NCBI GenBank assembly: GCA_013387215.1
Contig: WARW01000003.1
Span: forward strand, 10,227-74,226
Length of the DNA: 64,000 nucleotides
Direction of reading: 5' to 3'
Source of the DNA: Patescibacteria group bacterium
Lineage (GTDB): Bacteria > Patescibacteriota > Microgenomatia > UBA12405
In this document: positions 2,431 to 55,196 of the stretch, one piece after another
Layout of the letters: each line of letters starts with the position of its first letter
Numbering within the stretch: the stretch's first letter is position 1
Position numbers and translations under genes: made by a program
Notes under the pieces: generated by a model
The model's database searches: none
The model's input: only the letters and a program-made list of their open reading frames with translations
Told to the model about the DNA's origin: nothing

Positions 2431-4206
2431 ATGAATATTTTAAAGTGGAACCTGGACGACATATTATCTGTTGAAAAATTTGATGAATTTTTTTGGGAAA
2501 TTCAAAATGATATTGGTTATTATCCACAACTAATTAAAAAACTAGACCCTCGAATGGAAGAGGAATTGTTTAAAGAGATAATAGATTTTGATGAAAATTT
2601 GAGCGAGAAAATTTCCAGATTGAGTTATCTGCCTCACTTAATGGAAACTACCAACCAAAAAGACCAGAAGGCTCAAATTTTAAAATCAAAAGCAGACCAA
2701 ATAATTGTTAGCTATGAGGAAGTTTCAAGAAAATTATTTCACTGGCTTAAGGGAAAAAAGGTTAACGAATTAGAGATTTTGGACAATAAAAATGCAGAAA
2801 GACTATTTGAATCGATTCCTGATTTGGAATTTCAACTTAAACATAATCGTGAAGCATCAAAATACGCTTTAAACGAATCTGAAGAAAACATAATTAGCAA
2901 TAAAAATATTAGCGGAATATTTGCAGTCAAAGATTTACGAAGACAAATATCAACTGGTTTTAGATATAAATTAAAGATTAAAAATCAAAAAACAAGAATA
3001 ATTAAAACACAAGCCGAATTAACAAATTTAGCGCACAGCTCTAAACCAGAAGAAAGAAAAGCGGCCTACTTAAGCTTGTTTAAAGAGTATGAAAAAAATT
3101 TAGATAAATTTTTTATAATTTATCAAGCAGTGGTTAAAGATTGGAATTATGAAGCAAAACTTAGAGGTTATGAAAGCGCCATCAGCATTAGAAATTTTAA
3201 TAATCATATTTCTAATGAAGTAATTGAGATGTTATTAAAAACCTGCAGTGAAAATAAATATGTTTTTCAAAAATATTTTAGATATAAAGCAAAAGAAATG
3301 GGGGTTGAGAAATTAAATCGTTTTGATATTTATGCTCCATTTAAGGCTAGGACTTATAAACACATAGAATTTAATAAAGCAAAAGAGTTGGTTTTAGAAA
3401 CATTTAAAGAATTTTCACCCAGTTTTTACAATCAGGCCAAAAAAATATTTGACGATAAACATATTGATTCCCACCCGAATCCAGAAAAAAGAAGCGGTGC
3501 ATTTTGTGCAACAATCAGTCCTAAAATAACTCCTTACATAATGATGAATTTTACAGGTGAAAAAAATGATTTATATACATTAGCTCATGAACTAGGACAC
3601 GGTATTCACAGTTTATTGGCAAATAATCATTATTATTCAAGTCAGCAGGCTACCCTACCTCTGGCTGAAACCGCTTCCACTTTATCGGAATTAATTTTGT
3701 TTGAAAAAACTTATAAAAATGAACACGATTCTAAAGTTAAAAAAACAATGCTGATTGACCAGATAGCAAGTTCTTATGCAAGCATATTGAGACAAAATTA
3801 TTTTGTGCTATTTGAAATTGAAGCCCATAAATTGATTAATTCAGGGTGCAATTCCAGCCAATTGTCGGAATTGTGGCTAAATACATTAAAGGAGCAGTTT
3901 GGGGATAGTGTAGAGGTGGATAGGGTTTTTAAAAATGAATGGGCTTATATCCCCCATATCTTTGATACACCATTTTATTGCTACAGCTATAATTTTGGAG
4001 AACTATTAAGTTATGCTTTGTATAGTAGATATAAAAAGGAAGGTTTAAGTTTTGTTTCTAAAATTGAAACGATATTGAAAAGCGGAGGTTCAGAGGATCC
4101 CGAAAAAATATTAATGAATGCTGGAATAAATATTAAGGATAAAAACTTTTGGCAGAGTAGTTTTGAGATAATAAATGAATGGCAATCTACATTAGAGAAA
4201 TTGTAA
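2431..4206 (+). CDS. pepF: Oligoendopeptidase F (M3B metallopeptidase)
   Basis: 591 aa, with the zinc motif HELGHGIHS followed by a downstream Glu (LAETAS). Length and layout are typical of PepF. Confidence 0.85.
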   Translation: MNILKWNLDDILSVEKFDEFFWEIQNDIGYYPQLIKKLDPRMEEELFKEIIDFDENLSEKISRLSYLPHLMETTNQKDQKAQILKSKADQIIVSYEEVSRKLFHWLKGKKVNELEILDNKNAERLFESIPDLEFQLKHNREASKYALNESEENIISNKNISGIFAVKDLRRQISTGFRYKLKIKNQKTRIIKTQAELTNLAHSSKPEERKAAYLSLFKEYEKNLDKFFIIYQAVVKDWNYEAKLRGYESAISIRNFNNHISNEVIEMLLKTCSENKYVFQKYFRYKAKEMGVEKLNRFDIYAPFKARTYKHIEFNKAKELVLETFKEFSPSFYNQAKKIFDDKHIDSHPNPEKRSGAFCATISPKITPYIMMNFTGEKNDLYTLAHELGHGIHSLLANNHYYSSQQATLPLAETASTLSELILFEKTYKNEHDSKVKKTMLIDQIASSYASILRQNYFVLFEIEAHKLINSGCNSSQLSELWLNTLKEQFGDSVEVDRVFKNEWAYIPHIFDTPFYCYSYNFGELLSYALYSRYKKEGLSFVSKIETILKSGGSEDPEKILMNAGINIKDKNFWQSSFEIINEWQSTLEKL

Positions 4207-4234: not shown

Positions 4235-4337
4235 AGGGTAATGTTTGTTTATTTCAAACATGAAGTTCATTTTTTATTCATAATTATATTTTTTAATTAA
4301 TTGTTAATAATTAAAAAAATTAAGGTGGTGATAATAA

Positions 4338-4454
4338 ATGAAAAAATTAATGGAAGAAATATTAACAGATAAAAGTGCCCGAAACATGGCTCAAACAGAT
4401 GCTTTATCACTTGCTGTTGAAGAAGTTGGCGATCCATGGCAAAGTATTGCTTAA
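4338..4454 (+). CDS. Small peptide (38 aa), candidate ComX-like pheromone precursor
   Basis: ATG at 4338 is preceded by AAGGTGGTGA (4322-4331), and the stop is TAA at 4452-4454. Translation: MKKLMEEILTDKSARNMAQTDALSLAVEEVGDPWQSIA. It is not in the ORF track because it is under 60 aa. It sits 31 nt upstream of the kinase gene. Confidence 0.55.
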   Translation: MKKLMEEILTDKSARNMAQTDALSLAVEEVGDPWQSIA

Positions 4455-4485: not shown

Positions 4486-5961
4486 ATGCTAAAAACAATC
4501 ATAAACAAATTAATTTCTAGGTTTAATAATTACTTATTTAATTTTTCCCGGATAAGTGATGAAGATTTGAGGCGAAAGGCTAAGATTTTTAATATAATCA
4601 CTTTCTCTATTTTTTTATTGACTTTATATTCTCTTGCGACTTGGATATTTGGTTATTGTTTTATTGATAGATCTTCTGACAGAAATTTTAGCCACATAAT
4701 TCCAATTTTAGTACTTACACTATTGCCAATTATATTGTTAAAAGTTTCCTTATTAGGAAAACCAAGATTAGCAGCTTGGATATTAATATCATTACTATTA
4801 TTGGCTACATTAAGAACTTCTTTAATTTATGGTGTAAATGTACCAATGGCAACTGTAAGTTATGCGCTAATAATTTTTATGAGCGGAATCTTGGTTGGGC
4901 CATTAAGTGCTTTTTTATTAACAATAATAATTTTTGGTTGCTTGTTAAGCATTTTCTTTTCCCACACGTGGCATTTTATTGAGGTATATTCTGATTGGAA
5001 GAATAAATCTTCTGATATATCGGATATTCTGATATTGAATGTTATATATTTGGTCATTGCAATAGTGTCATGGTTATCGAGCCGAGAAGTTAACAAATCA
5101 CTTAAAAATGCTAATTTATCAGAACAGAAAGCTTTAATGTTGGCTGACAAATTACAAAAACAAAATGATGATCTGGAAAAAATAGTAGAAGAAAGAACAC
5201 AAGAACTTAGGGAACATCAATTAAAACAGCTGATGGAAATAAATACGTTGGCTGAATTTGGAAAAATATCAGCAGGATTATTACATGATTTGAAGAATCC
5301 ATTAACGGTAATTTCAATGAATTTAGACAGTATTAATGATTACGTTAAAGACAAAAATATTTTAAGTCAATCGGAATGGAAAAAATTAATCAACAATTCT
5401 TTATTAGCTTCCAGAACAGTGGAATCAATGGTCAGAACTTCGCAAAAGCAATTAATTAATGAAGATACTAAAGTATTATTTGATTTAAAAAAGGAAATTA
5501 AAAATACTTTAATACTTTTGAATACAAGAGCAAATAAGTTTGGGATAGAAATAAAATTTGTATGTAAAGAATCAATAAACATATTCGGTTGTCCAACAAA
5601 ACTGTCTAGAGTTTTAGCCAACCTAGTTGTAAATAGTATAGATGCTTTGAGGGATGCAAAAAGAGATTTTCCAAAAATAACTATTGAAGTTCAGAAAAAT
5701 AAAACTTCAATAGAAATTATGATTAAAGATAATGGCTGCGGTATTAAAGACGAAGACAAGAAAAATATTTTTCAAGCATTATTTAGTACAAAAAAAGAAA
5801 TGAATAATTCTGGTTTAGGCCTATTTATCAGTAAAACTATTTTGGATAGTTGTTTTAAAGGTACTATTAGTTTTAAAAGTACCTGGGGTGAAGGAAGTGA
5901 ATTTTTAATCGATATTCCGGTTTTAAAACAAAATGGAGCAAAAACTAAACAAAGTAATTGA
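4486..5961 (+). CDS. Sensor histidine kinase with a 6-TM N-terminal sensor region
   Basis: About six hydrophobic helices lie in aa 30-200, followed by a coiled coil. H-box SAGLLHDLKNPLT, N-box NLVVNSIDAL, G1 DNGCGI, G2 GLGLFIS. Confidence 0.9.
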   Translation: MLKTIINKLISRFNNYLFNFSRISDEDLRRKAKIFNIITFSIFLLTLYSLATWIFGYCFIDRSSDRNFSHIIPILVLTLLPIILLKVSLLGKPRLAAWILISLLLLATLRTSLIYGVNVPMATVSYALIIFMSGILVGPLSAFLLTIIIFGCLLSIFFSHTWHFIEVYSDWKNKSSDISDILILNVIYLVIAIVSWLSSREVNKSLKNANLSEQKALMLADKLQKQNDDLEKIVEERTQELREHQLKQLMEINTLAEFGKISAGLLHDLKNPLTVISMNLDSINDYVKDKNILSQSEWKKLINNSLLASRTVESMVRTSQKQLINEDTKVLFDLKKEIKNTLILLNTRANKFGIEIKFVCKESINIFGCPTKLSRVLANLVVNSIDALRDAKRDFPKITIEVQKNKTSIEIMIKDNGCGIKDEDKKNIFQALFSTKKEMNNSGLGLFISKTILDSCFKGTISFKSTWGEGSEFLIDIPVLKQNGAKTKQSN

Positions 5962-7807
5962 TAAAGGAATTGCCTTTTTAACTGATGAATTAGAAAAGAA
6001 TGTATATTTTGGATTTGAAAGCATATTTCCAATGATTTTGGTTTTTGATTGTCTTAATGAAATTGACAATAAAGGCAGCTACTTGATTAAAGCGAAAATT
6101 AAAAAAGTTTTATTGAAAGAGAAAAATGAATTATGGTCTTTTAATTATTGGAAAAGAAAATCGATAAAAAACAAAATAGAACCATATCCTGAGGATCTTG
6201 ATGATACATGTTTAGCACTTAGTGCTTTATATAGATTTGATAAAAAAGTTTTCAAGGGCAATGATCTTGCAAAAATAATTAATCTTTTAATATTGGCGGA
6301 AGAAAAGATAGGCGGCCCATATCGTACTTGGATATTGGCTAAAGAAAAGTCGGAAAAATGGAGTGATATCGATATTGCAGTTAATAGCAACATTGGATAT
6401 TTTTTAAAATTACAAAAAATTAAGTTAAAGAACTTAACTGAATTAATTGAAAATGGAATCATTAAAGACAAAATATATTCCCCTTTTTATAAAGGTGAGC
6501 TGCCCGTAATTTATTTTATTTCCCGTTTTTATAATGGGAAATTAAAAAATATTTTGAAAGAAAAACTTATCAATAAGGCAAATACTAGCGATTCGGCCTT
6601 AGATTTAGCTTTGATAATAAGCAGTTTAATCAGACTCGGTTATAAAAATATAAAAGAAGACTGGGTTAAGAAAATATGTACAAAACAATCCAAATCAGGA
6701 AATTGGATAGGTGAAGATTTTTATTTTTATGTAGACAAATTAAAACAAACTAATTTTATTGGTACTGAAAGCATTAGTACGGCTTTTATTTTGGAAGCTT
6801 TAACTTTATATATAAATCAAAAACTCAAATTTAAAGATCCATTGTTTTTAGAGATTAATGAGTTTAAAAAAGAAACAGTTTTCAGGCTAGAAAAAGTTTT
6901 TGAAAAGCATCCCGATAAATTAAAAAAGGAAATATTAACATTTATCAAAAACTTAGCTTCGAGCAGTGAATCAGAAATGATAATTGCGACGCCATTAATT
7001 GTTTTAAATTCTATCGATACGGAATTAAAGATCAAAATAACAAAAGATTTTATTGTCAAATTAGGACAAATTAATTTATTGGGATGGTGTGCATATACGA
7101 TTTACGACGATATTATGGACAGTGATTCTTCAGGAAAAATGATTCCAATGGCAAATATAATTTGCAGGGAGATGGAATCAATACTAGGCAGTCTTCCAAT
7201 AAACAAGGAAACAGGTTTTTTTAATTTTTCCAAATTTTTATTGCAAAAAATGGAAATAAGTAATTGGTTTGAACAGAATTATTTATGTCTTAACTCTAGC
7301 AATAATACAATCGATGAGTTTGATTATAAAAAGTTAGCCGATAAGTCTTTAGGACATGCATTGAGCTCAGTAGCAATTTTATGTTATTTGAAACAATCAG
7401 TAAGGTCTTTAGAGGTCCGTTATTTAATGAATTATTTTAGATATTTTATTGTTGCTAAACAGATGAATGATGACGTTCATGATTGGTTAGAAGATTTAGA
7501 AAAAGGCCAAATAAACAGTGCGAGTTATGGATTAATAAAATTTTTAGAAAAAAACAATAAAAGTATTTATAAAGAAATCATGAATAAAGAAAATTTAAAA
7601 TTAATTTTTTGGCAAAATATTGTTCCTGATTATTGTAATAAAATAATATATTTTTCAAATAAAGCGAAAAGAGCATTAAACCAATCCAGTTTAATTATCA
7701 ACAAACTATATTTATTGAATTTAAATAATAAGAATGTAGAATTATGTAGAATTGCATTAAAAGAAAGAAAAAATACATTAGACTTTATAAAAAATTACTA
7801 CAAATGA
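5933..7807 (+). CDS. Two-domain isoprenoid-enzyme-like protein: N-terminal terpene-cyclase/prenyltransferase-repeat-like domain plus C-terminal polyprenyl-synthase/ComQ-like domain
   Basis: DLDDT at aa 88-92 (nt 6194-6208) and a QW-type motif QSKSGNW at aa 252-258 (6686-6706). Two DDxxD motifs: DDIMD aa 392-396 (7106-7120) and DDVHD aa 513-517 (7469-7483), 121 aa apart. It overlaps the kinase gene by 29 nt and the regulator gene by ATGA. Confidence 0.5.
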   Translation: MEQKLNKVIDKGIAFLTDELEKNVYFGFESIFPMILVFDCLNEIDNKGSYLIKAKIKKVLLKEKNELWSFNYWKRKSIKNKIEPYPEDLDDTCLALSALYRFDKKVFKGNDLAKIINLLILAEEKIGGPYRTWILAKEKSEKWSDIDIAVNSNIGYFLKLQKIKLKNLTELIENGIIKDKIYSPFYKGELPVIYFISRFYNGKLKNILKEKLINKANTSDSALDLALIISSLIRLGYKNIKEDWVKKICTKQSKSGNWIGEDFYFYVDKLKQTNFIGTESISTAFILEALTLYINQKLKFKDPLFLEINEFKKETVFRLEKVFEKHPDKLKKEILTFIKNLASSSESEMIIATPLIVLNSIDTELKIKITKDFIVKLGQINLLGWCAYTIYDDIMDSDSSGKMIPMANIICREMESILGSLPINKETGFFNFSKFLLQKMEISNWFEQNYLCLNSSNNTIDEFDYKKLADKSLGHALSSVAILCYLKQSVRSLEVRYLMNYFRYFIVAKQMNDDVHDWLEDLEKGQINSASYGLIKFLEKNNKSIYKEIMNKENLKLIFWQNIVPDYCNKIIYFSNKAKRALNQSSLIINKLYLLNLNNKNVELCRIALKERKNTLDFIKNYYK

Positions 7808-8484
7808 ATATACTATATATAGAAGACGATAAACAATTAGCCAAAACTATCCAACAAAAACTGATTTCTCATTACAATGTTGATATCTCTCCAACTGGTA
7901 AAAAAGGCATCATTTTAGCCGAGAATAAAGAATATGATCTTTTTATAATTGACTACTATCTGCCAGATCAAAACGGAATTCAAGTTTGTAAAAAAATTAG
8001 AGAGGTTGATACCAAAACACCAATTTTGGTTTTTACTACTAACGATACTAAAAAAGATGTGGTTGAAGCGCTTGATGCAGGAGCTGATGATTATTTGACA
8101 AAACCATTTTCTTATCAAGAGTTAGAAGCCAGAATCAGAGCACTTGTAAGAAGAAACAGTCGTAAGCAGCCAACCAAGCAGATAAATGTTGGCAAATTGA
8201 CTATTAAATTGGATGATCAATATATTGTTTTAAACAAACAATATATTAAATTGCCGAGGCAAGAATATATGCTTTTAAAATATTTGACCACAAATAAAGG
8301 AAAATTGGTTTCACGAGAGGAACTCTATGAACATGTATGGGGTAGAGATGATTACTATAATTCAAACACAATAGACGTCCACATAAGGCGTTTGAGAAAA
8401 AGATTAAAAGAACTTGTTGGAGAAAACTGCATTAAGTCGGTTTATGGAAGTGGATATAAAATATATAATTTTCAAGAAGAATAA
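7804..8484 (+). CDS. OmpR-family response regulator (receiver plus winged helix)
   Basis: Receiver motifs (DLFIIDYYLPDQNG, the T of VFTTND, and KPF). C-terminal trans_reg_C pattern (TIDVHIRRLRKRL, GYK). Confidence 0.9.
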   Translation: MNILYIEDDKQLAKTIQQKLISHYNVDISPTGKKGIILAENKEYDLFIIDYYLPDQNGIQVCKKIREVDTKTPILVFTTNDTKKDVVEALDAGADDYLTKPFSYQELEARIRALVRRNSRKQPTKQINVGKLTIKLDDQYIVLNKQYIKLPRQEYMLLKYLTTNKGKLVSREELYEHVWGRDDYYNSNTIDVHIRRLRKRLKELVGENCIKSVYGSGYKIYNFQEE

Positions 8485-8614: not shown

Positions 8615-9262
8615 ATGAACGAAAAAATCAAAAAACAACTCACGGCATTTTTTAACAAATATAAACTTATAAAGTATAAAAAGGGTCAAATTCTTTTTAA
8701 ACCAGGTGAGAGAATTAATGGTATTTTATTTGATAAAAGTGGTTACGTAAGAGTCTACACTATCTCAAAAGAAGGAAAGGAAATTACACTACCAATGTTA
8801 AAACCTTTATTTTTCTGTTCTTTAGTCGATGCTTTATTGGGCAAAGAAAACAAATATTACATTGAAGCTATTAGCCCAGTGGAATTATGGCTGGCTCCAG
8901 AAAACGAATTTATGGATTTTATCAAACAAGATCCAGATCTTTACGATAAAATGACCAAATCTATGTTGAATGATTTTATGGATTTAACTAATAATGTTCA
9001 ACAGCTTATTTTTGGGGATGCATACACAAAGATTGCCAGTTTAATATATTCGATGTCAGAAAAATTTGGAGAAATGAAAGGCAAAGAAACCGTCATCGGA
9101 TTTAATACTCCCCACAGAATGTTGGCTAGCATGACTGGGTTAACCAGAGAAACAGTGACTCTACAAATCTTAAAATTACAAAAGGAAGGCTTTTTGTATA
9201 ATAAAGGCCGAAGAATTGTAATTAAAGATATGGAAAAACTCAAAGAAATTGCTCAGGTCTAA
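8615..9262 (+). CDS. Crp/Fnr-family transcriptional regulator
   Basis: N-terminal cNMP-binding-like beta-roll, C-terminal HTH (RMLASMTGLTRETVTLQILKLQKEGFL), 215 aa. Confidence 0.8.
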   Translation: MNEKIKKQLTAFFNKYKLIKYKKGQILFKPGERINGILFDKSGYVRVYTISKEGKEITLPMLKPLFFCSLVDALLGKENKYYIEAISPVELWLAPENEFMDFIKQDPDLYDKMTKSMLNDFMDLTNNVQQLIFGDAYTKIASLIYSMSEKFGEMKGKETVIGFNTPHRMLASMTGLTRETVTLQILKLQKEGFLYNKGRRIVIKDMEKLKEIAQV

Positions 9263-22031: not shown

Positions 22032-23420
22032 TTATTGCTTACATTGACCATTGTAGACTGGTGAACAACCAAGTTGGCTGTCGGTTCGCTGGCCAGAAGT
22101 GTCGTCAATATGTTTACGAAGCACTTGTTCTAGCTCATACCCTTTTTGAGGAATGGTGGAGATTAAATTGTTTTGCTCTTTAGGATCGTCATTTAGGTTA
22201 TAAAGCTCTTTGTTGCCGTTTTCTAAAGTTAAAATAAATTTCCAGCCATCTGGAGTCTGATAGGACCTTTTAAATGTATAAAGTCGATAATCAGTTTCAC
22301 TAAATACACTGTGGGCGACAGATTTACCATCAAAAACCGGAGTAAGATCAGCACCTTTTGTCTGTTCAGGAACAGGGTTTTTTATTCCCAATAAATCAAG
22401 CGCAGTTGGAACTATATCGAGAGTGCTTACTAGTTCATTAATTCTTTGGCCTTTGGTTTGGCCTGGTTTGTGAATAGCAAACAAAACATCAACTAGTTCA
22501 CCATAAAGAGTGTGGCCATGATCAAAACGATTATGTTCGTAGAATTCAGTGCCATGATCACTCATAACGATAATAATTGTATTATCCAAAAGTTTCATGT
22601 TGTTGATCTGATCCATAAAGTTTTTGAATTCAGCATCGGTACGATTAATCTTTTCATCATAAATAGCCCGCCAAAAAGCCACATCTTCGGGTGATAGATT
22701 TAAACTTTTACCAGCTAAACCGTCTTCACGAAGTTGACCTTGTTCGGTTGGACTGCCAGTATATTTGCCGTTATATGGCTTTGAAACATAGCGATAATCA
22801 AAACCACCGGCTGGTGCATGCTGCCCGTGAACATCATAGCCATGAAGGAAAAGGAAAAACTGCTTGTTTTTATTCTGCTTTAACCAGTCAACTGCTCTTG
22901 GTATGCTGCCATCGAAACCACCGAAGGTGCCAGTGGGTTCATAATAAGTATCAAAACCTTGACTAAAACCAAACTGCGGCCCAACTCCAGCATCGCCAGT
23001 AAAACCGCCAGTAACAAAACCTTGTTTTTTAAGAATTTCAGCAAGGGTCATGGCATTCGGAGAAAGTTTTTTTAAATTAGAAATAGTTCCCTTTTGGGCT
23101 TTCATATCGTAATCACTAAATTTGTTGACAACTTTATGTTCGGATGGATACATAGAAGTAAAGACAGACATGTGGGTTGGCACTGTCCAAGATGACGGAC
23201 TGACAGTATTGGTAAATAAAGTTGACTTATCAATAAAAGAATCTAAATTGGGAGTCGTGTTCAAAGAATAGCCATATTCATGCAAATGCTTGGCCTGCAA
23301 GCCATCGATCGAAACAAGAATAAGATTATATTTTTTATGAAATAGTTTTGGAGAAATCTTTATTGCAGCAACGGTTAGTAAGCTTAGAACAATGACACCA
23401 ATAAGAAATTTAATTTTCAT
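22032..23420 (-). CDS. Sulfatase-fold (alkaline-phosphatase superfamily) ectoenzyme, Thr-nucleophile type, divergent seventh paralogue
   Basis: N-terminal anchor, SIDGLQAKHL, TVPTHMSVFTSMYP (Thr at the position of the sulfatase Cys/Ser) and SDHGTEFYEH. Confidence 0.75.
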   Translation of the reverse strand: MKIKFLIGVIVLSLLTVAAIKISPKLFHKKYNLILVSIDGLQAKHLHEYGYSLNTTPNLDSFIDKSTLFTNTVSPSSWTVPTHMSVFTSMYPSEHKVVNKFSDYDMKAQKGTISNLKKLSPNAMTLAEILKKQGFVTGGFTGDAGVGPQFGFSQGFDTYYEPTGTFGGFDGSIPRAVDWLKQNKNKQFFLFLHGYDVHGQHAPAGGFDYRYVSKPYNGKYTGSPTEQGQLREDGLAGKSLNLSPEDVAFWRAIYDEKINRTDAEFKNFMDQINNMKLLDNTIIIVMSDHGTEFYEHNRFDHGHTLYGELVDVLFAIHKPGQTKGQRINELVSTLDIVPTALDLLGIKNPVPEQTKGADLTPVFDGKSVAHSVFSETDYRLYTFKRSYQTPDGWKFILTLENGNKELYNLNDDPKEQNNLISTIPQKGYELEQVLRKHIDDTSGQRTDSQLGCSPVYNGQCKQ

Positions 23421-23493: not shown

Positions 23494-25023
23494 ATGCGAT
23501 TGGGTAAAAAAATATTTATATTTGGTTTGCTGGGATTGATGATAATTGGGAGCGGTTTTTTGATTATTAAAAAAGTATCAAAAAAAACCTGCGATAAATG
23601 CAACATAATGCTTATCGATGTTGATATTTTGAGAGCAGATGAACTTCCCTGCTATGGATATCCCCGAAACACAATGCCAAACATTTGTGAATTTGCCAAA
23701 AAATCAGTAAGTTTTAAAGATAATTATTCGACTTCATATTGGACACTACCAAGTATTTTTTCAGTAATTACTTCACTATATCCAACTTTTCATCAAATGC
23801 AGGTTAATTATATGTTTGCACTGTCGTCTAGAATTCCGACTTTAGCAGAAACTTTACATAAGCAAGGATATAAGACTGTTTATGTGGGACAAAAAGACGA
23901 TTTAATGTCTAGTTATAATGGCGGTTTCCGCGGTTATGATTTAGTAACTCAAGAACCAATTGAAAAAGTAATTGATGAACTTTCAAAAAGTTCTCAACCA
24001 TGGTTTATACATAGGTATATCAGTGAATTGCATATGCCCTATTTATTGCCAGATAATTTAAAACCTGTGGAAGATTTGCCGGTTCCAAAAAATTTACCAA
24101 CTACTTATTACACTTTCGATTTATTTTTTAATAAATATTTAAAAGAACATTACAAAGAAATATTTAAACAGAAAGCAATCGATGAATATAGAGCAATTAT
24201 TTTAGGACCAGATAAGGCAGATGATATTAGTGTGACCAATCTTTTTGATAAATTGAGAGCTGACGATAAAACCATAAATGAATATTTATTAGATGCCTGG
24301 AGACCGAGATTAGATTTTTATTTAAAATCGTTTGACGGAAAAAATCCCCAAGATGTGGCTTATTTAAGAATGATGTATGACACTAAACTAAAATATCTTG
24401 ATGAAAAACTAAAACCTCTTTTACAAAGACTAGACTCGAGTTCATTGTCAAAAAACACTATTACAGTGATTATGTCGGATCATGGTGAAGCATTTGGCGA
24501 GCACGGAACGTTTTCACATGAGGATAATCATTTCACTGAACTATTTTACACTCCTTTAATAATCAGGGCTCCTCAATTTGAAGCAAAACAAGTTGAACAA
24601 ACCACAAATATAGTGGATATATTTCCGACTATTTTAGATTTAACAGGTGAGAAAAAAATTGATATGCATCAAGGGCAATCATTAGTACCTTATATGAATG
24701 GCCAAACTAAAAACGATACTACATTCAGCTTGAGCCAATCAATAGAAGGAACGCTTTTACAAAATAAGAATTGGCTGTACTTTTTACCAAACAGCGCTAA
24801 AGATATGAATGAATCAGAACTCTATAATAAAACCATCGACCCCCTGGAAAAAGTGAATGTGACTGGACAGAATCAAGATTTAGTTAAAACACTTTTTAAA
24901 AAAGCTGATTTATTCCGCTCATACGGAGGGATTGATTATGAAAAAGAAGAAATACCGTTGCCAAACCGGATGAAGTTGGACCCAGATAAAATAGAACGCC
25001 TTAAAAAAGAAGGATATTTTTAA
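23494..25023 (+). CDS. Sulfatase-fold ectoenzyme paralogue 1 (Thr-nucleophile type)
   Basis: TM anchor, CDKCNIMLIDVDILRADELPCYGY...PNIC, SYWTLPSIFSVITSLYPTFH, SDHGEAFGEHG and the tail ERLKKEGYF. Confidence 0.8.
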   Translation: MRLGKKIFIFGLLGLMIIGSGFLIIKKVSKKTCDKCNIMLIDVDILRADELPCYGYPRNTMPNICEFAKKSVSFKDNYSTSYWTLPSIFSVITSLYPTFHQMQVNYMFALSSRIPTLAETLHKQGYKTVYVGQKDDLMSSYNGGFRGYDLVTQEPIEKVIDELSKSSQPWFIHRYISELHMPYLLPDNLKPVEDLPVPKNLPTTYYTFDLFFNKYLKEHYKEIFKQKAIDEYRAIILGPDKADDISVTNLFDKLRADDKTINEYLLDAWRPRLDFYLKSFDGKNPQDVAYLRMMYDTKLKYLDEKLKPLLQRLDSSSLSKNTITVIMSDHGEAFGEHGTFSHEDNHFTELFYTPLIIRAPQFEAKQVEQTTNIVDIFPTILDLTGEKKIDMHQGQSLVPYMNGQTKNDTTFSLSQSIEGTLLQNKNWLYFLPNSAKDMNESELYNKTIDPLEKVNVTGQNQDLVKTLFKKADLFRSYGGIDYEKEEIPLPNRMKLDPDKIERLKKEGYF

Positions 25024-25068
25024 TAGGTGGTATATTAAACTGATAATTAAAAGTAATAGGCTGTTTTA

Positions 25069-26613
25069 ATGCTCAAAAGAAAATATCAAAAAATTATAAT
25101 CGGAGCGGGATTTATTTTGTTGATTATATTTGGGCTAATAGGACTTTTTAAACGAACAAACAAATTGCCATTTAAAGCCTGTACCAACTGCAACATTATA
25201 TTAATTGATATTGATATTTTAAGAGCTGATGAATTGCCTTGCTACGGATATTCCCGAAATACCACCCCAAACATTTGTAATTTTGCGAAAAAGGGTATGA
25301 TTTTTAATGACAACTATTCTCCATCCTATTGGACTATGCCTAGTATGTTTTCCACAATAACGTCTCTTTATCCAACTTTCCACCGAATCCAAATGAATTA
25401 CACTGAAGCTTTGTCGCCTAAAATTCCAACCCTTGCAGAAACTTTACACAAACAAGGCTACCGAACAATCTATATTGGCCCGGAAGACGACATGTTAAAA
25501 CACAATAATGGCGGCTTACGCGGTTATGATTTAGTGACTCAAGAACCGATTGAAAAAGTGGTAAGCGAATTGTCGAAAAGTTCTCAACCATGGTTTGTGC
25601 ATTACTATAATAGTGATTTGCATGCCCCATATTTATTTAATGAAAAACCTCAATTGATTGATAATCTTCCCGCCCCTAAAAATTTTCCAATTACTTATTT
25701 AGATTTCAGTATTCTTCTAAATAAATATTTAAAAGAACATTACAAAGAAATATTCAAACAGAAAGCTATCGATGAATATAGAGCAATTATTTTAGGACCA
25801 GATAAAGCAGATGATATTAGTGTAACTACTCTTTTTAACAATATTAGAGGCGATAAGAAAATAATGAATGATTATTTATTTGATGCCTGGGTGCCAATAT
25901 TAAACACTTATCTTGGTTCTTTTGATAAAAATAATGCCGATAATGTGGCATATTTACGCATGATATATGATACTAAACTTAAGATAATAGACGATAAGTT
26001 GGGAGCGCTTTTTCAAGAGTTGGATTCAGAAGCACTATCTAAAAACACCATAACAGCAATTTCGTCAGACCACGGAGAAGCGTTTGGAGAACATGGAACT
26101 TTTTCACATGAGGTTAACCATTTCACTGAACTATATTACACACCTTTAATAATCAAGGCTCCACAATTTTCAGGAAAAATAATTAATGAAACCAGCAGCA
26201 ACATTGATATTTTCCCGACTTTTTTAGACTTAACCGGCAGCGAAAAAATTAATAATCAGCAAGGCAAATCACTAGTTTCTTATATGAATAATGAAAATAA
26301 AAGTTTAGAGGGCTTTAGTGTCAGTGAATGTTCGGAAGGAATATTGCTGCAAAATAAAAAATGGTTGTATTTTTTATCAAATGAGGTTTCAGAATTTAAT
26401 AAATCGGAACTTTACGACAGGAAAAATGATCCATTAGAAAAAAATAATGTGGTTGGAAAGAATCCAGAATTAGCTAGATCACTTTACCGACAGGCTGATT
26501 TGTTCCGATCCTATGGCAAAATTGAATATAAAAAAGAAGAGATACCAATTAGTGAGCAAATTAAGTTGGATCCAGAAAAGATCGAACGTCTTAAAAAAGA
26601 AGGCTATTTTTAA
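25069..26613 (+). CDS. Sulfatase-fold ectoenzyme paralogue 2
   Basis: Same motif set as paralogue 1 (CTNCNI, SYWTMPS, SDHGEAFGEHG, ERLKKEGYF). Confidence 0.8.
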   Translation: MLKRKYQKIIIGAGFILLIIFGLIGLFKRTNKLPFKACTNCNIILIDIDILRADELPCYGYSRNTTPNICNFAKKGMIFNDNYSPSYWTMPSMFSTITSLYPTFHRIQMNYTEALSPKIPTLAETLHKQGYRTIYIGPEDDMLKHNNGGLRGYDLVTQEPIEKVVSELSKSSQPWFVHYYNSDLHAPYLFNEKPQLIDNLPAPKNFPITYLDFSILLNKYLKEHYKEIFKQKAIDEYRAIILGPDKADDISVTTLFNNIRGDKKIMNDYLFDAWVPILNTYLGSFDKNNADNVAYLRMIYDTKLKIIDDKLGALFQELDSEALSKNTITAISSDHGEAFGEHGTFSHEVNHFTELYYTPLIIKAPQFSGKIINETSSNIDIFPTFLDLTGSEKINNQQGKSLVSYMNNENKSLEGFSVSECSEGILLQNKKWLYFLSNEVSEFNKSELYDRKNDPLEKNNVVGKNPELARSLYRQADLFRSYGKIEYKKEEIPISEQIKLDPEKIERLKKEGYF

Positions 26614-26654
26614 TTAGGTTAATATATAAATAATATATTGAATAAATAAATTAC

Positions 26655-28196
26655 ATGAAGATTCTTTTTTTTAGAGAAAAAAAATACCGCAAGATTATTG
26701 TGTTAGTTGGTATAGCATTAATAATTGGGTTAGTACTTGCATGGAAAAGATTGCCTGAAAAAAAGTGTGAACACTGCAATATTGTAATGGTAGATATTGA
26801 TGTCTTAAGAGCTGATGAGTTGCCTTGTTATGGATATTCCCGAAACACCACTCCCAATATTTGCCAGTTTGCCAAAAAGGCGACTATTTTTAAAGATAAT
26901 TATTCGACTTCATATTGGACTTTACCTAGTATGTTTTCAACAATTACCTCTATGCTACCCACCTTTCATAAGGTGAGAACTGAATTTATCAACAAACTGT
27001 CCCCTGATACAAAAACACTAGCCGAAGTTTTACATAGCCAGGGATATCGAACAGTATATATTGGCGACGGCCAGAATCCTGCTTTATTAACCAAAGATAA
27101 CGGAGGCTTGAGAGGTTACGATATTGTGACAAAAGAACCGATCGAAAAAGTAATTGCAGATCTTTCAAAAAGCTCACAGCCATGGTTTATCCACTATTAT
27201 TTAGTTGATTTACATATGCCTTATTTATTACCAGAAAATGTGAAACCAATGGAAGATCTGCCAGCTCCAAAAAATTTGCCAATAAACCAAACCGATTTTG
27301 ACCGCATGTTAAATACCTATTTAAAAAAGCACTATAAACAAATATTTAATGAAAAAGCGATTGGAAAATACGGCTCGGTTATTTTAGCTCCAGATAAAGC
27401 AGATGATACCAGTGTGACTAAACTTTTCAACGATTTAAGATGGACTAGTAAAAGCATGACTGAATATTTTATTGACAGCTGGAAGCCTATTTTTAATTCA
27501 TATATGGATTCATTTGATAAGAATAATCCCAATGATGTGGCATATATTAGAATGATGTACGATACAAAATTAAAACTGGCTGACGAGCAACTACAATCTC
27601 TTTTTATAAAATTAGAGACAAAACCATTTTCTGAAAATACGATCTCGATAATTATGTCAGATCATGGAGAAGCGTTTGGAGAACATGGAACTTTTTCCCA
27701 TGACAATAATAGTTATACGGAACTTTATCACACGCCGTTAATAATTCGGGCACCTGGACTGCCTGCTAAAATTGTGGACCAAACTTCAAGCAACCTAGAT
27801 ATTTTTCCAACAGTTTTAGACTTAAATGAAATAAAAAAATTAGACAGTTTTCAGGGAAAATCATTAGTGGACAGTGTCAATAAAAAAACAGAAACTAAAT
27901 CATTTAGTCTAAGCGAATATTCTGATGGTGTAATTTTACAAAACCATGACTGGCTGTATTTCTTACCATTTTGGGTTGATAAGTTTGAAAACTCAATGTT
28001 GTTTGATAGAAATAAAGATCCTAAGGAAAAAAATAATGCAGCAAAACAGAATTTAGAGTTAACTCACTTTCTTTATAAACAAGCTGATTTATTGAGATCT
28101 TATAATGGAATTATTTATAAGCCAGAGGAAATTCCAAGCGATATTAAATTAAATCCTGAAAAAATAGAGCGTCTTAAAAAAGAAGGCTATTTTTAA
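26655..28196 (+). CDS. Sulfatase-fold ectoenzyme paralogue 3
   Basis: CEHCNI, SYWTLPS, SDHGEAFGEHG, ERLKKEGYF. Confidence 0.8.
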   Translation: MKILFFREKKYRKIIVLVGIALIIGLVLAWKRLPEKKCEHCNIVMVDIDVLRADELPCYGYSRNTTPNICQFAKKATIFKDNYSTSYWTLPSMFSTITSMLPTFHKVRTEFINKLSPDTKTLAEVLHSQGYRTVYIGDGQNPALLTKDNGGLRGYDIVTKEPIEKVIADLSKSSQPWFIHYYLVDLHMPYLLPENVKPMEDLPAPKNLPINQTDFDRMLNTYLKKHYKQIFNEKAIGKYGSVILAPDKADDTSVTKLFNDLRWTSKSMTEYFIDSWKPIFNSYMDSFDKNNPNDVAYIRMMYDTKLKLADEQLQSLFIKLETKPFSENTISIIMSDHGEAFGEHGTFSHDNNSYTELYHTPLIIRAPGLPAKIVDQTSSNLDIFPTVLDLNEIKKLDSFQGKSLVDSVNKKTETKSFSLSEYSDGVILQNHDWLYFLPFWVDKFENSMLFDRNKDPKEKNNAAKQNLELTHFLYKQADLLRSYNGIIYKPEEIPSDIKLNPEKIERLKKEGYF

Positions 28197-28209
28197 ATAA
28201 ATTTGAAAG

Positions 28210-29727
28210 ATGGATAAAAAAATAAGAAATGTTTTATTGGTTTTGTTAATTTTTGTCGTGGGAACGGCAGTATTTGCATTAATAAAGACTAGGACAAAGA
28301 AAACCTGTGATCATTGCAATATTGTGATAATGGATATTGATATTTTAAGAGCTGATGAATTGCCCTGTTACGGATATTCCAGAAATACGACCCCAAATAT
28401 TTGCCAGTTTGCCAAAAAGGCAACTGTTTTTAAGGATAATTATTCAACTTCTGTTTTAACACTACCAGATATGTTTTCGATAATTACATCTCTTTATCCA
28501 ACTTTTCACCATGTGAACACAGCAACAATCGATAAACTTTCAGCAAACATCCCTACTTTGACTGAGATATTGAAAAAAGAAGGCTACAGGACAGTTTTTA
28601 TTGGAGATAGTGAATATTCTGGAACAATAAATAATCAAAACAATGGGCTAAGAGGCTTTGATATGGTGACACAAGAACCGATTGAAAAGGTAATGGAAGA
28701 ATTATCAAAAAGTTCTCAACCATGGTTTATATATTATTACTCAGGCGACTTACATATGCCTTATTTACTGCCGAAAAACACAAAACCGATGGAAAATATG
28801 CCGGCTCCAAAAAACTTACCGATAAACCAAACTGATTTTGATAAACGGTTAAATATTTATTTAAAAAATCACTACAAAGAGGTTTTTAATAAAAAAGCCA
28901 TTAAAGAATATTCTTCAATAATATTATCGCCAGATAAACCAGCAACTGAACTGTTTTATTCCTTAAAAAGTGACAATGAAAAGATGAAAGAATACTTAAT
29001 CGATGTGTGGAAACCTGAGTTTAACGTGTATATGGAATCATTTGATCAAAATAATTCTTCAGAGGTAAGTTATGTCCGAATGATTTATGATACAAAGTTA
29101 AATTTAGTTGATAATAAACTTGAAAAGGTGCTTAAAAAACTGGACACAAAAGAATCAATAAAAAATACGATTACTTTAATTTCATCAAACCACGGAGAAA
29201 GCTTTGGAGAACATGGAAATTTTTCCCATAATTTTAGTCCTCACTCAGAACTTTATTACACTCCATTAATAATTAAAGCGCCACAACTTAAGGCAAAACA
29301 AATCCAAAATACTTCAAGTAATATGGATATCCTACCCACAATTTTGGATTTAACTGGAATAAAAAAGTTAGACAGTTTTCAAGGAAACTCATTGATCGCT
29401 AGTATTAATCAAAAAGAAAACTTAGAAAATTTTGCCATGAGTGAATATTGGGGAAATATAATTTTACAAAATAAAAAATGGCTATATTTTTTACCAGCAG
29501 AAGCTAAATACATTGAGCAATCAATGCTTTTTAATAAAGAGAATGATAAAGATGAAAATACCAATGTGTCGATGCAAAATACAGAACTAGTAAAGATGCT
29601 TTACAAAAGGGCGGATTTGCTACGTTCTTATAGTGGAATTAATTATAAAATAGAAACTATTCCTACTAATGAAATAAAAATAGATCCTGAAAAAATTAAG
29701 AGGATTCAAAAAGAAGGATATTTTTAA
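28210..29727 (+). CDS. Sulfatase-fold ectoenzyme paralogue 4 (variant metal-ligand motif SNHGE)
   Basis: CDHCNI, SVLTLPD, SSNHGESFGEHG (Asn where the other copies have Asp) and KRIQKEGYF. Confidence 0.75.
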   Translation: MDKKIRNVLLVLLIFVVGTAVFALIKTRTKKTCDHCNIVIMDIDILRADELPCYGYSRNTTPNICQFAKKATVFKDNYSTSVLTLPDMFSIITSLYPTFHHVNTATIDKLSANIPTLTEILKKEGYRTVFIGDSEYSGTINNQNNGLRGFDMVTQEPIEKVMEELSKSSQPWFIYYYSGDLHMPYLLPKNTKPMENMPAPKNLPINQTDFDKRLNIYLKNHYKEVFNKKAIKEYSSIILSPDKPATELFYSLKSDNEKMKEYLIDVWKPEFNVYMESFDQNNSSEVSYVRMIYDTKLNLVDNKLEKVLKKLDTKESIKNTITLISSNHGESFGEHGNFSHNFSPHSELYYTPLIIKAPQLKAKQIQNTSSNMDILPTILDLTGIKKLDSFQGNSLIASINQKENLENFAMSEYWGNIILQNKKWLYFLPAEAKYIEQSMLFNKENDKDENTNVSMQNTELVKMLYKRADLLRSYSGINYKIETIPTNEIKIDPEKIKRIQKEGYF

Positions 29728-31292
29728 TGAAAGGCTTTTTAAGTAGAAAAAAACTTTTGTTGCTAGCATTATTGATTTTATTGTCGATAGTAATTGGTTT
29801 TGGATCGTGGACTTTTTATAAAAAAACAGAAAATAAGTCCGAAAAAAAGTGCGAGAATTGCAACATAATGCTTATTGATATTGATATTTTAAGAGGTGAT
29901 GAATTATCCTGTTTGGGATATTCCCGAAATACCACCCCAAACATTTGTGAATTTGCCAAAAATGGAGCTGTTTTTAAGGATAATTATTCGACTTCATATT
30001 GGACTCTTCCAAGTATATTTTCAACCATGACTTCTTTGTATCCGACTTTTCATGGGATGCAAAATGCAGGCAAGGATATTCTCTCTCCAAACATTACAAC
30101 TTTGGCTGAGGTGTTACATAAAAAAGGATATATGACGGTTATGGTAAACGGAAATAAAGATACAATGCAAATGCTGTTTGGCGATAATGAGGGTTTGAGA
30201 GGCTTTGAAATGGTTACAGCTGATCCGGTTGAAAAAGTTATAGATGACTTATCAAAAGACAATAGACCTTGGTTTATTTATTACTATAACTCAGAGCTGC
30301 ACTTTCCATATTTATTGCCAGAAAACACAAAACCGATGGAAGATTTGCCAGCTCCAAAAAATTTACCAATAAACCAAACTGATTTTGATACTTTACTAAA
30401 TAAATATTTAAAGACTCATTATACAGAAATATTTAAGCCAAAGATAATTGATAAGTACGGTTCGATTATTTTAGGGTCAAATAAAGAAGATGATATGGGT
30501 ATGGTGAAAATGTTTAATACTTTAAAAGCGGATCCTTCAAAAGTAAGCGAATATTTTATTAATGACTGGAATGCAAATTACCAAACTTACATGGAGTCGT
30601 TTGATCAAAATAATCCATCTGACGTTAAATATGTGCGAATGCTTTACGATACAAAATTAAAATTACTTGATAATAAAATGGGAAGTGTTTTACAAAAATT
30701 AAATTCGAAACAGCTTTCAGAAAATACAATCACAGTTATTACTTCAGACCATGGAGAAAATTTTGGAGAACATGGTTTTTTTACCCATATTGCCGATTTT
30801 CATTCCGAAGTGTTTTATATTCCATTAATTATTAAATCACCCAACATTTTACCGACAACAATCGAGCAAACAACAAGTAATATTGACATATTCCCTACTC
30901 TTTTAGATTTAACTGGCATCAATAGCCCGGGCGGACTACAAGGGATTTCTTTAGTTCCGTATATTAATAATCAGCACACAGAAAAACAATCATTTGCTAT
31001 GAGTGAATATTGGGGAAATGTGATTTTAGAGAATCATGATTGGCTGTATTTTTTACCTAAAGATGAGCAAGGTGTAGTCAAACCCACGTTCTATGACAGA
31101 ATTAAAGATCCGGCAGAAAAAGAAAATGTCATAGATAAATATCCTGAGATGGTAAATTCCCTTTATAAACAAGCCAGCCTGCTTCGCTCTTATAATGTTT
31201 TCTATGAAAATAAACCAATAGTAAAACCTGATGTAATCAAAAACATTGATAAAGTAAAATTAGATCGATTAAGGAAAGAAGGTTATTTTTAA
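29727..31292 (+). CDS. Sulfatase-fold ectoenzyme paralogue 5
   Basis: CENCNI, SYWTLPS, SDHGENFGEHG, DRLRKEGYF. Its start codon overlaps the stop of paralogue 4 (TAATG). Confidence 0.8.
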   Translation: MKGFLSRKKLLLLALLILLSIVIGFGSWTFYKKTENKSEKKCENCNIMLIDIDILRGDELSCLGYSRNTTPNICEFAKNGAVFKDNYSTSYWTLPSIFSTMTSLYPTFHGMQNAGKDILSPNITTLAEVLHKKGYMTVMVNGNKDTMQMLFGDNEGLRGFEMVTADPVEKVIDDLSKDNRPWFIYYYNSELHFPYLLPENTKPMEDLPAPKNLPINQTDFDTLLNKYLKTHYTEIFKPKIIDKYGSIILGSNKEDDMGMVKMFNTLKADPSKVSEYFINDWNANYQTYMESFDQNNPSDVKYVRMLYDTKLKLLDNKMGSVLQKLNSKQLSENTITVITSDHGENFGEHGFFTHIADFHSEVFYIPLIIKSPNILPTTIEQTTSNIDIFPTLLDLTGINSPGGLQGISLVPYINNQHTEKQSFAMSEYWGNVILENHDWLYFLPKDEQGVVKPTFYDRIKDPAEKENVIDKYPEMVNSLYKQASLLRSYNVFYENKPIVKPDVIKNIDKVKLDRLRKEGYF

Positions 31293-31298
31293 AAACAG

Positions 31299-44782: not shown

Positions 44783-44816
44783 TATATGATTAAAATATTA
44801 GTTATAAAAAAATAGT

Positions 44817-45524: not shown

Positions 45525-45525
45525 A

Positions 45526-48213: not shown

Positions 48214-48247
48214 GTTTTAGGTCTGAATGATTGATATAATTTGTATA

Positions 48248-48281
48248 AACAGTGCCTTGTTAATATCTAACACTGTTTTTT
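48248..48281 (+). terminator. Rho-independent terminator after the VirB4-like gene
   Basis: AAACAGTG-15 nt-CACTGTTT followed by TTT. The stem is AT-rich and the loop is long, so the call is moderate. Confidence 0.5.
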
Positions 48282-48316
48282 ACGCTTTTGTAAATTTTAT
48301 TTATATCTTGTAATAA

Positions 48317-55117: not shown

Positions 55118-55196
55118 AATTATTTTTGTTTTATAAAGGCATTAATATGCCTATTTTTAGGCAGGAAATAAATTAACTTCGGGGCAGAGATTTAAG

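Follow-up and report, generated by a model that had tools for sequence, protein, structure and literature searches.

The open reading frame at positions 5933-7807 of the window (the whole 64,000-nucleotide stretch that was analysed) probably encodes a bifunctional peptide maturase, which is predicted to act in a four-gene peptide-signalling cassette analogous to comQXPA. The enzyme joins a cyclase-type domain to a domain folded like a trans-isoprenyl diphosphate synthase (abbreviated trans-IDS). Its features are the following.

5933-7807, forward strand: enzyme ORF, an open frame of 624 aa
5933..6883, forward strand: N-terminal domain (aa 1-317), predicted class II terpene cyclase with a beta domain only, MstE/drimenol-synthase type
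6194..6208, forward strand: DxDD(T) general-acid motif D88-L-D90-D91-T92; D90 is invariant and aligned with the general acid of AsDMS
6884..7807, forward strand: C-terminal domain (aa 318-624), trans-isoprenyl-diphosphate-synthase-like fold, proposed Trp prenyltransferase of the ComQ / ChrPC-P type
7106..7120, forward strand: FARM D392-D393-I-M-D396; D392 and D396 are invariant, aligned with LIHDDIxD of canonical IDS
7460..7483, forward strand: SARM with preceding Gln, Q510-M-N-D513-D514-V-H516-D517; Q510, D513, H516 and D517 are invariant, aligned with AFQIxDDxLG of canonical IDS

The initial annotation had described a DxDDT motif, a QxxxGxW repeat and two DDxxD motifs in this polypeptide, and had taken the first two as class II cyclase-type and the last two as FARM/SARM-like. 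All of them are present: EDLDDT at 87-92 (D-x-D-D at 88-91), KQSKSGNW at 251-258 (QW-like QxxxGxW at 252-258), YDDIMDSD at 391-398 (DDxxD at 392-396) and NDDVHD at 512-517 (DDxxD at 513-517). Motif matches alone are weak evidence, as about 0.1 chance DDxxD matches are expected per protein at 5.4% D. The DxDD, QW-like and both DDxxD motifs are conserved in the enzyme family, which comprises at least 1,477 sequence clusters. In 48 full-length homologues (27-57% identical), D90, D392, D396, Q510, D513, H516, D517 and D521 are invariant, and all of these except D90 are likewise invariant in an alignment of 59 C-terminal domains. D90 aligns to the catalytic general acid of the drimenol synthase AsDMS, D323 in the numbering of PMC12232559. 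In alignment with canonical trans-prenyl synthases, both DDxxD motifs fall in register with the FARM and SARM, and in the predicted structure (pLDDT 93) they lie on helices 371-395 and 493-523. The invariance, the alignment of D90, the register and the helix placement together show that the motifs are real.

The initial annotation had also suggested domain parsing by HMM and structure prediction. The window enzyme has no match in Pfam or NCBIfam, and none of the 48 homologues matches polyprenyl_synt. The structural model gave two recognizable folds. The N-terminal domain has the alpha/alpha-barrel beta-domain fold of beta-only class II cyclases, with the DxDD general-acid motif at the homologous position. 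The C-terminal domain shows the all-alpha trans-IDS fold (~305 aa) shared by trans-IDS-like peptide Trp prenyltransferases, supporting its FARM and SARM as genuine motifs on a trans-prenyl-synthase fold. A profile of this domain found no sequence match among PDB chains, and no sequence similarity to ComQ or PF00348/polyprenyl_synt is detectable. The link of the C-terminal domain to peptide prenyltransferases rests on fold, motifs and gene context.

The gene context is decisive for the interpretation. A 38-aa ORF and a two-component system, which the initial annotation had mentioned in passing, are real neighbours of the enzyme gene, and they prove to be the central clue, since the four genes for peptide, kinase, enzyme and regulator make up a strictly conserved module. 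The features around the enzyme gene are the following.

4266..4281, forward strand: direct repeat TTCAT-N6-TTCAT with 11-nt phasing, putative OmpR/PhoB-type regulator box, 72 nt upstream of the peptide start
4292..4297, forward strand: -10-like hexamer TTTAAT, placed 10 nt downstream from the repeats, a candidate at the level of consensus
4322..4331, forward strand: Shine-Dalgarno sequence AAGGTGGTGA, ending 6 nt 5' of the peptide ATG
4338..4454, forward strand: precursor peptide of 38 aa, MKKLMEEILTDKSARNMAQTDALSLAVEEVGDPWQSIA, whose leader spans roughly residues 1-16 and is followed by a variable core; its only Trp (W35) is four residues from the C-terminus
4486..5961, forward strand: sensor histidine kinase of 491 aa, with Pfam HisKA and HATPase_c
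7804..8484, forward strand: OmpR/PhoB-family response regulator of 226 aa, with Pfam Response_reg and Trans_reg_C, RppA/PhoB-like in NCBIfam

Among 86 loci compared, almost all from Patescibacteria, only four genes stay together: the response regulator, a 33-41 aa peptide, a histidine kinase with 5-7 transmembrane (TM) helices, and the enzyme. A homologous kinase lies immediately 5' of the enzyme gene in 83 loci, a regulator homologue is found within the cassette in 71, and a canonical trans-prenyl synthase gene adjoins it in 19 (22%). No other gene family recurs around the enzyme in more than 11 of the 86 loci, and no gene for an exporter, leader protease, immunity protein or transporter is conserved in the cassette. 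The usual order is regulator-peptide-kinase-enzyme; the regulator comes last in the window and in two other loci (L001 and L002). In the window, the kinase stop overlaps the enzyme start by 29 nt, and the regulator start overlaps the enzyme stop codon (ATGA). At least 358 species-level genomes and ~1,500 sequence clusters retain the module, which implies an important function.

The peptide was found in 76 of the 76 loci having enough upstream flank. A peptide HMM placed it directly 5' of the kinase gene in 75 loci, and the copy in L033 has a CTG start. Of the peptide ORFs, 57% have a Shine-Dalgarno core of 5 nt or more in front of them, compared with 6% of random ATGs. Members of the family share a leader, MKKLxKKxLTDKxAR, and an invariant Trp close to the C-terminus, and their core is hypervariable. 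In the 74 peptides analysed, L9 and R15 are near-invariant, and Trp is located 1-7 residues from the end in every case, as a single Trp in 72 and after Pro in 59. W35 is the proposed prenylation site in the window. The kinase has about 6-7 TM helices predicted by hydropathy in its first ~200 aa, without a large extracytoplasmic loop, and the His of its DHp domain lies in HDLKNP at aa 267-272. The kinase is proposed to act as receptor for the modified peptide.

These genes lie together as in ComQXPA systems, in which genes for a trans-IDS-fold prenyltransferase, a short pre-peptide with one Trp close to the C-terminus, a multi-pass histidine kinase and a response regulator are adjacent on the same strand. 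As in ComQXPA, divergence is fastest in the peptide core and the sensor domain, and the cassette is without a dedicated exporter or protease. The differences are also clear. The enzyme here carries an extra class II cyclase domain and has no detectable sequence similarity to ComQ, and its SARM is a full DDxxD in contrast to the pseudo-SARM NDxxx of ComQ and StheQ. Instead of a ComP-type kinase and a ComA regulator of the NarL/LuxR type, there are a HisKA/HATPase_c kinase and an OmpR-type regulator with Trans_reg_C. The gene order, RR-X-HK-Q (X-HK-Q-RR in the window), and the host, Patescibacteria versus Bacillota, differ as well.

The characterised trans-IDS-like peptide prenyltransferases, ComQ, PalQ, StheQ and ChrPC-P, all prenylate a peptide Trp, and a conserved Gln upstream of the SARM is described as a determinant of Trp recognition in them (PMC13290415). 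In the window enzyme, the invariant Q510 stands three residues before D513-D514-x-x-D517. Genes for enzymes of this kind adjoin those for Trp-containing precursors also in PalP-PalX-PalQ of Paenibacillus alvei, a cluster with a histidine kinase, and in StheQ-StheX of Sphaerobacter thermophilus. The Trp of PalX and StheX is at or beside the C-terminus. Unlike the present cassette, those systems are without a cyclase domain, have longer precursors (NHLP type, or 69 aa) and belong to Bacillota or Chloroflexota.

The closest likeness for the two-domain architecture is ChrPC. ChrPC and NctPC are RiPP maturases in which a prenyltransferase is fused to a terpene cyclase (Hubrich et al. 2024, Chem 10:3224, by the account in PMC13290415). 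By that description, ChrPC unites a trans-IDS-like peptide-Trp transferase and a monodomain MstE-like class II cyclase in one polypeptide, as the window enzyme is predicted to do, and the cyclase acts on the installed C10-C20 prenyl group. In the window enzyme the cyclase domain comes first, at the N-terminal end, and the transferase domain second; the order in ChrPC is implied only by its name. The short ComX-like precursor and the two-component system, in a CPR host, also set the present cassette apart from the fused maturases, whose characterised examples reportedly include a proteusin-type RiPP. MstE itself, the merosterolic acid synthase (PDB 6sbb), is a stand-alone monodomain class II cyclase with a small-molecule substrate, and it uses DxD, not DxDD (PMC12414744).

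Under the peptide-maturase reading, the 38-aa precursor would be held via its conserved N-terminal leader. The C-terminal domain would bind an allylic prenyl diphosphate of about C15-C20 via Mg2+ at the FARM and SARM and would move the prenyl group onto W35, the single conserved Trp. D90 of the beta-only cyclase domain may then protonate the distal double bond of the peptide-bound chain and close the chain into a polycyclic terpenoid; such a cyclisation is reported for the ChrPC/NctPC maturases. Once exported and freed of its leader, the short terpenylated peptide would be sensed by the adjacent multi-pass kinase. The OmpR-type regulator would turn on the precursor promoter via the 11-nt phased repeats, leading to autoinduction, as well as further targets. 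As for a prenyl donor, a scan of the window ORFs of at least 150 aa beyond 16 kb and of those near the cassette revealed neither a prenyl synthase nor an isoprenoid-pathway gene. When the prenyl synthases encoded beside the cassettes of L003 and L005 were run with phmmer against every window ORF of 80 aa or more, no match was obtained.

The upstream repeats are consistent with such a circuit. The syntenic relatives L001 and L002 also keep the TTCAT box, and L083 has three copies of it. Among 71 loci, exact 6-mer direct repeats 5' of the peptide gene have a spacing of 11 in 12 loci and of 22 in 10, and every other spacing from 6 to 30 occurs in 0-3 loci. L001 and L002 show the same layout of box, 10 nt and hexamer, as do L027 and L083 with TATAAT. 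A generic promoter scan was not above chance. The TTCAT box is a putative binding site of the response regulator.

CPR/Patescibacteria make up a large share of bacterial diversity, and have tiny genomes and mostly episymbiotic lifestyles. Full-text literature searches turned up no description of a dedicated system for cell-cell signalling in CPR bacteria. The cassette may represent a phylum-wide, self-contained pheromone system, in which the fused enzyme puts a cyclised (polycyclic) terpenoid on the Trp of a ComX-like peptide, a dedicated multi-pass kinase reads that peptide under OmpR-type autoinduction, and the hypervariable cores define pherotypes; this broader claim is advanced tentatively, at slightly under even confidence. 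If true, it would be the first cell-cell signalling system reported for CPR in the literature searched and would bring a new chemical class of bacterial pheromone. ComX-type Trp-prenyl pheromone signalling would extend far beyond Bacillota, and would be joined to the recently discovered cyclised-terpene RiPP chemistry. The enzyme, the 38-aa peptide, the kinase/regulator pair and the promoter box would offer a handle on kin or host sensing by ultra-small bacteria. The enzyme, if its predicted activity is true, would be a compact biocatalyst to put polycyclic terpenoids on peptides.

It is also conceivable, though unlikely, that the enzyme terpenylates the Trp to make a RiPP product outside of signalling, such as a lipopeptide with antimicrobial or membrane activity or with a part in host interaction. 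The role of the two-component system would then be confined to regulating production or sensing envelope stress caused by the product, as in lantibiotic and Lia/Bce-type circuits. A hydrophobic middle segment, possibly membrane-inserting, is present in about 39% of the peptides, and a surface or host-directed lipopeptide is plausible for episymbiotic CPR bacteria. The characterised ChrPC/NctPC products, as outlined in PMC13290415, are RiPP natural products, not pheromones. Against this, immunity, transporter or protease genes are not conserved among the 86 loci. The kinase gene, which is coupled in translation to that of the enzyme, is also the one linked to it most tightly (83 of 86 loci). 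The precursor is very short, with a Trp position resembling that of ComX and StheX, and regulator-type boxes are located directly 5' of the precursor gene, as in autoinduction loops. These features argue against a product outside of signalling.

It is improbable that the enzyme is a prenyl synthase plus class II cyclase making a free cyclic terpenoid or cyclic prenyl diphosphate, with the peptide and the two-component system as mere neighbours or regulators. Here, the C-terminal domain would supply or elongate FPP or GGPP and the N-terminal domain would cyclise it as in drimenyl-diphosphate synthase. There is a precedent for such a fusion in the fungal copalyl diphosphate synthase PvCPS, but the IDS domain there is a genuine GGPP synthase that has IPP-binding motifs, and the cyclase is a beta-gamma didomain acting on GGPP. 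GGKxxR and RRG, the IPP-binding motifs, do not vary among the canonical IDS encoded beside the cassette (A3), and nothing among the conserved residues of the C-terminal domain corresponds to them; hhalign relates the domain only weakly to canonical IDS (probability 20%). This domain retains the FARM, [KR]S and QxxDDxxD. It is therefore predicted to work as a transferase, not as a chain-elongating synthase. The separate, complete trans-IDS adjoining the cassette in 22% of loci also speaks against this reading. AsDMS of Aquimarina spongiae (PDB 9mhs, 9m7d), whose substrate is free FPP, pairs a beta-only class II cyclase with a HAD phosphatase, not with a prenyltransferase. Its phosphate-binding residues R368, R370 and R415 align to W143, D145 and P184 of the window enzyme in a profile alignment through loop regions, and W, D and P stand there in the enzyme family. 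By this replacement, the cyclase domain probably does not take a diphosphate substrate. A free terpenoid would further leave the invariant-Trp peptide in 76 of 76 loci unexplained.

A bacterial class II plus class I terpene synthase, as the initial annotation had proposed, in which the C-terminal domain would ionise a bicyclic diphosphate made by the N-terminal domain and form the final hydrocarbon or alcohol, is very improbable: it would account for DxDD and two Asp-rich motifs in one polypeptide and for the weak match of one of the 48 homologues to Pfam Terpene_syn_C_2 (E 1e-5), but the NSE/DTE metal-binding motif of class I enzymes is absent from the enzyme, where the second motif is QxxDDxxD, and the top structural neighbours of the C-terminal domain are IDS and not cyclases. 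The class II part of that proposal is supported for the N-terminal domain by its fold and by the alignment of D90 with the general acid of AsDMS.

The cassette in the window comprises four genes on the forward strand, in the order peptide, histidine kinase, enzyme and response regulator:

4338-4454, +, ORF for the 38-aa peptide, the first gene of the cassette
4486-5961, +, histidine kinase, overlapping the start of the enzyme gene by 29 nt
5933-7807, +, the 624-aa enzyme, with a putative N-terminal cyclase domain and a putative C-terminal transferase domain (C-domain)
7804-8484, +, OmpR-type response regulator, with an ATGA overlap at the enzyme stop

The initial annotation had reported two class II cyclase-type motifs and two DDxxD-type motifs in the enzyme. 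All four lie exactly where it had placed them in the intact ORF: EDLDDT (aa 87-92), KQSKSGNW (aa 251-258), YDDIMDSD (aa 391-398) and NDDVHD (aa 512-517). Motif matches by themselves are weak evidence, and therefore their conservation was tested among homologues. A word-indexed search yielded 52 full-length homologues of 552-677 aa. The cluster representatives matched in an exhaustive search with an HMM built from the alignment of the word-search homologues numbered 3,212 at E <= 1e-3, of which 1,477 reached E <= 1e-30. The top 150 matches are essentially all two-domain proteins of ~570-770 aa and cover nearly the whole profile. In an alignment of 48 sequences, D90, G127-G128-P129-Y130, W133, W143, D147, D392, D396, E447, S472, Q510, D513, H516, D517 and D521 are invariant. 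The G+C content of the window is ~26-35%. The window enzyme shows no match to Pfam and NCBIfam models, and a PDB search with its single sequence found nothing. Some homologues weakly match SQHop_cyclase_C, the complement TED domain or AstC-like_C, and one matches Terpene_syn_C_2.

A scan of species-representative genomes revealed 358 stretches encoding a relative of the enzyme. The loci compared here were five obtained by exact protein look-up and the 80 best from these genomes. Of the best 80 among the 358, 58 are labelled as CPR/Patescibacteria (Saccharibacteria, Microgenomates, Parcubacteria, Levyi-, Morani-, Doudna-, Shapiro-, Roizman-, Taylor-, Colwell- and Daviesbacteria), and most of the others have labels that are generic or doubtful. 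In one such case, the cassette of L028, a locus labelled "Gammaproteobacteria", is identical in gene coordinates and peptide to that of L029 from Microgenomates.

Clustering of the neighbouring ORFs found the enzyme in 86/86 loci, a kinase immediately upstream of it in 83/86, the regulator in 71/86, and a canonical trans-prenyl synthase (PF00348) in 19/86. Only these four protein families recur; every other gene family is present in 11 or fewer of the 86 loci. Because the flanking genes vary among loci, the linkage of the cassette is functional, beyond mere synteny. The commonest gene order in the related loci is regulator-peptide-kinase-enzyme. Among 56 complete cassettes, the regulator is the most conserved, followed by the kinase catalytic core and the peptide leader at a similar level, the cyclase domain, the transferase domain, the transmembrane (TM) sensor of the kinase and, far behind, the peptide core. 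Two genes flank the window cassette. An M3-family oligoendopeptidase (2431-4206, +) is directly 5' of the peptide promoter; its counterparts in L001 and L002, which are syntenic, belong to PF01432. Since it adjoins the cassette only in close relatives of the window (3 loci), it is probably not a cassette member; it is still a candidate leader peptidase. A Crp/Fnr-type regulator (cNMP_binding and HTH_Crp_2; 8615-9262, +) is just 3' of the cassette, with a homologue nearby in 7/86 loci.

The small ORFs 5' of the kinase constitute one family. HMM members were found in 75 loci and a CTG-start copy in L033, so that the peptide is present in all 76 loci with enough upstream sequence. The peptides are 33-41 aa long. 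Their conserved leader is M-[KS]-x-L-x-K-K-x-L-T-D-K-x-A-R, with L9 and R15 near-invariant, and their middle and C-terminal parts are hypervariable. A single Trp is present in 72 of 74 peptides, the Trp is always 1-7 residues from the C-terminus, and Pro precedes it in 59/74. An SD core is seen 5' of 57% of the peptide ORFs, compared with 6% of random ATGs; the window's SD core is AAGGTGGTGA, with 6 nt between its end and the ATG. This anatomy is that of the ComX and StheX precursors, in which a Trp close to the C-terminal end receives its prenyl group from an enzyme with a trans-isoprenyl diphosphate synthase (trans-IDS) fold. Sec-type export was rejected as a general route for the precursor, as a hydrophobic h-region is seen in only 29/74 peptides and not in the window peptide.

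A profile of 59 C-domain sequences gave only chance matches to PDB sequences, and at the sequence level the C-domain is an orphan. Its profile-profile match to the adjacent canonical trans-IDS genes is weak (E 1e-3), yet three motifs are in register. TIYDDFLD of the C-domain corresponds to LIHDDIxD at the first Asp-rich motif (FARM), [KR]S-x-G-H to KTA-x-Y-T, and ARQLNDDAHDW to AFQIxDDxLG at the second Asp-rich motif (SARM). The IPP-binding GGKxxR and RRG are invariant in the adjacent canonical trans-IDS, whereas they have no conserved counterpart in the enzyme family. With the motifs in register and these residues missing, the C-domain looks like a prenyl-diphosphate-binding transferase, not an elongating synthase or a class I cyclase.

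In the cyclase domain, the invariant D90 is aligned with the general acid of the drimenol synthase AsDMS, which is the central Asp of DxDTT (D323 by the numbering of PMC12232559). The QxxxGxW of the enzyme also aligns with AsDMS. The phosphate in AsDMS is held by three arginines, R368, R370 and R415, which are replaced in the enzyme family by W143, D145 and P184, respectively. Because of this replacement, and because R198 is the sole conserved basic residue of the domain, we infer that the cyclase domain does not bind prenyl diphosphate.

In the proposed mechanism, the leader would guide the binding of the precursor by the enzyme. The C-domain would transfer a C15-C20 prenyl group from its diphosphate to W35, the single Trp of the window peptide, in a Mg2+-dependent manner, and the N-terminal domain would cyclise the peptide-bound chain, with D90 initiating. 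The modified peptide would then be exported and trimmed. The kinase would sense it, with feedback via the regulator. The steps of Trp transfer and cyclisation are proposed because of published precedents (PMC13290415). The characterised trans-IDS-like peptide prenyltransferases all act on Trp and have in common a Gln just ahead of the SARM, and in ChrPC a trans-IDS-like domain is coupled with an MstE-like cyclase, by which the prenyl group, once installed, is cyclised (PMC13290415). PalPXQ of Paenibacillus is a known kinase-precursor-prenyltransferase cluster.

It is possible, but rather unlikely, that the product is a RiPP without a signalling role and that the two-component system is regulatory. 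It is improbable that an elongating synthase and a cyclase produce a free terpenoid; this fits poorly with the missing IPP- and diphosphate-binding residues and leaves the invariant-Trp peptide unexplained. A terpene synthase combining class II and class I activity has the same poor fit, likewise leaves the peptide unexplained and is very improbable.

In concept, the enzyme agrees with the fused prenyltransferase-cyclase RiPP maturases already published, and the cassette agrees with comQXPA. Literature searches for such a system in CPR/Patescibacteria or Saccharibacteria gave nothing relevant. Within the searchable literature, no description was found of the joining of the two concepts, the cyclase-then-transferase domain order, the OmpR/HisKA signalling pair, the very short ComX-like precursor, or the very broad distribution that is nearly confined to CPR. 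The genome mining published with ChrPC may already list CPR homologues.

Regarding the prenyl donor, a canonical synthase adjoins the cassette in 22% of the related loci. When the prenyl synthases next to the cassettes of L003 and L005 were run by phmmer against every window ORF of 80 aa or more, no trans-IDS was found, and no isoprenoid-pathway gene was seen among the window ORFs scanned with Pfam. The residues before the FARM of the adjacent IDS are too heterogeneous in pattern to call chain length. Some adjacent trans-IDS (L006, L011, L036, L038 and L051) have degenerate motifs, such as RYDG or ERRHK for RRG and DDYMN or DDHSD for DDxxD; these synthases may themselves be specialised.

The first ~200 residues of the kinase contain ~5-7 predicted TM helices, and a large loop is absent. 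Receptors whose ligands are peptides or lipid-like typically have such a sensor. Exact 6-mer direct repeats 5' of the peptide gene are spaced by 11 in 12 loci and by 22 in 10 loci; each of the remaining spacings between 6 and 30 is seen in 0-3 loci. Repeats of 8-mers with one mismatch peak at 11, 22 and 33. The repeat motif is TCTTTAC in L006, L020, L025, L027, L037 and L071, and (G/C)TTCAT in the window, L001, L002, L008 and L083. The window repeat box is TTCATTTTTTATTCAT at 4266-4281. A -10-like hexamer lies 10 nt after the repeats, an arrangement that PhoB/OmpR-type activator sites also have. From this arrangement, we infer that the cassette regulator drives the precursor gene, which would make an autoinduction loop. 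Further TTCAY-N6-TTCAY boxes in the window, as regulon targets, were not significant (3 observed, 1.6 expected), and a generic promoter/terminator scan was not above chance.

Another element, (A)AGGTCGA(R), is conserved at 26-59 nt 5' of the peptide ATG, within the leader of the gene, in L003, L006, L008, L010, L014, L017, L020, L022, L025, L027, L032, L037, L038, L047, L049, L069-L071, L082, L083 and L085, and is not present in the window. These loci have their own promoter region and are mostly without an SD beside the ATG. In 26/72 loci, GGTCG is found in the 120 nt preceding the peptide ATG, compared with 0.075 expected. The element often appears to lie in a hairpin loop. A structured 5'-UTR hairpin around AAGGTCGA was rejected, as enclosing stems in 15/23 cases are not significant against 62% for shuffled flanks, and this leader matched no Rfam family. 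Matches to the Rfam LOOT RNA (RF03000) were seen in L020 (15809-15926, +) and L022 (1856-1987, +), several kb from the cassette.

Elsewhere in the window, four genes surround a gap of ~900 nt (55118-56016), which is probably the replication origin region:

52323-53441, -, dnaN
53756-55117, -, dnaA
56017-56796, +, yidC
56842-57312, +, jag/KhpB

GC skew is nevertheless positive throughout the window. Six tandem paralogues of the sulfatase/alkaline-phosphatase superfamily (PF00884; ~505-521 aa, 52-66% identical) occupy 23494-32831 (+), and a seventh, more distant copy is on the opposite strand (22032-23420, -). The region 43877-51430 (+) encodes a PrgI-family protein, a 904-aa TraG/VirB4-like P-loop ATPase and a 1037-aa protein with a C-terminal NlpC/P60 domain, which jointly resemble a gene set for type IV secretion or a conjugation-like process.
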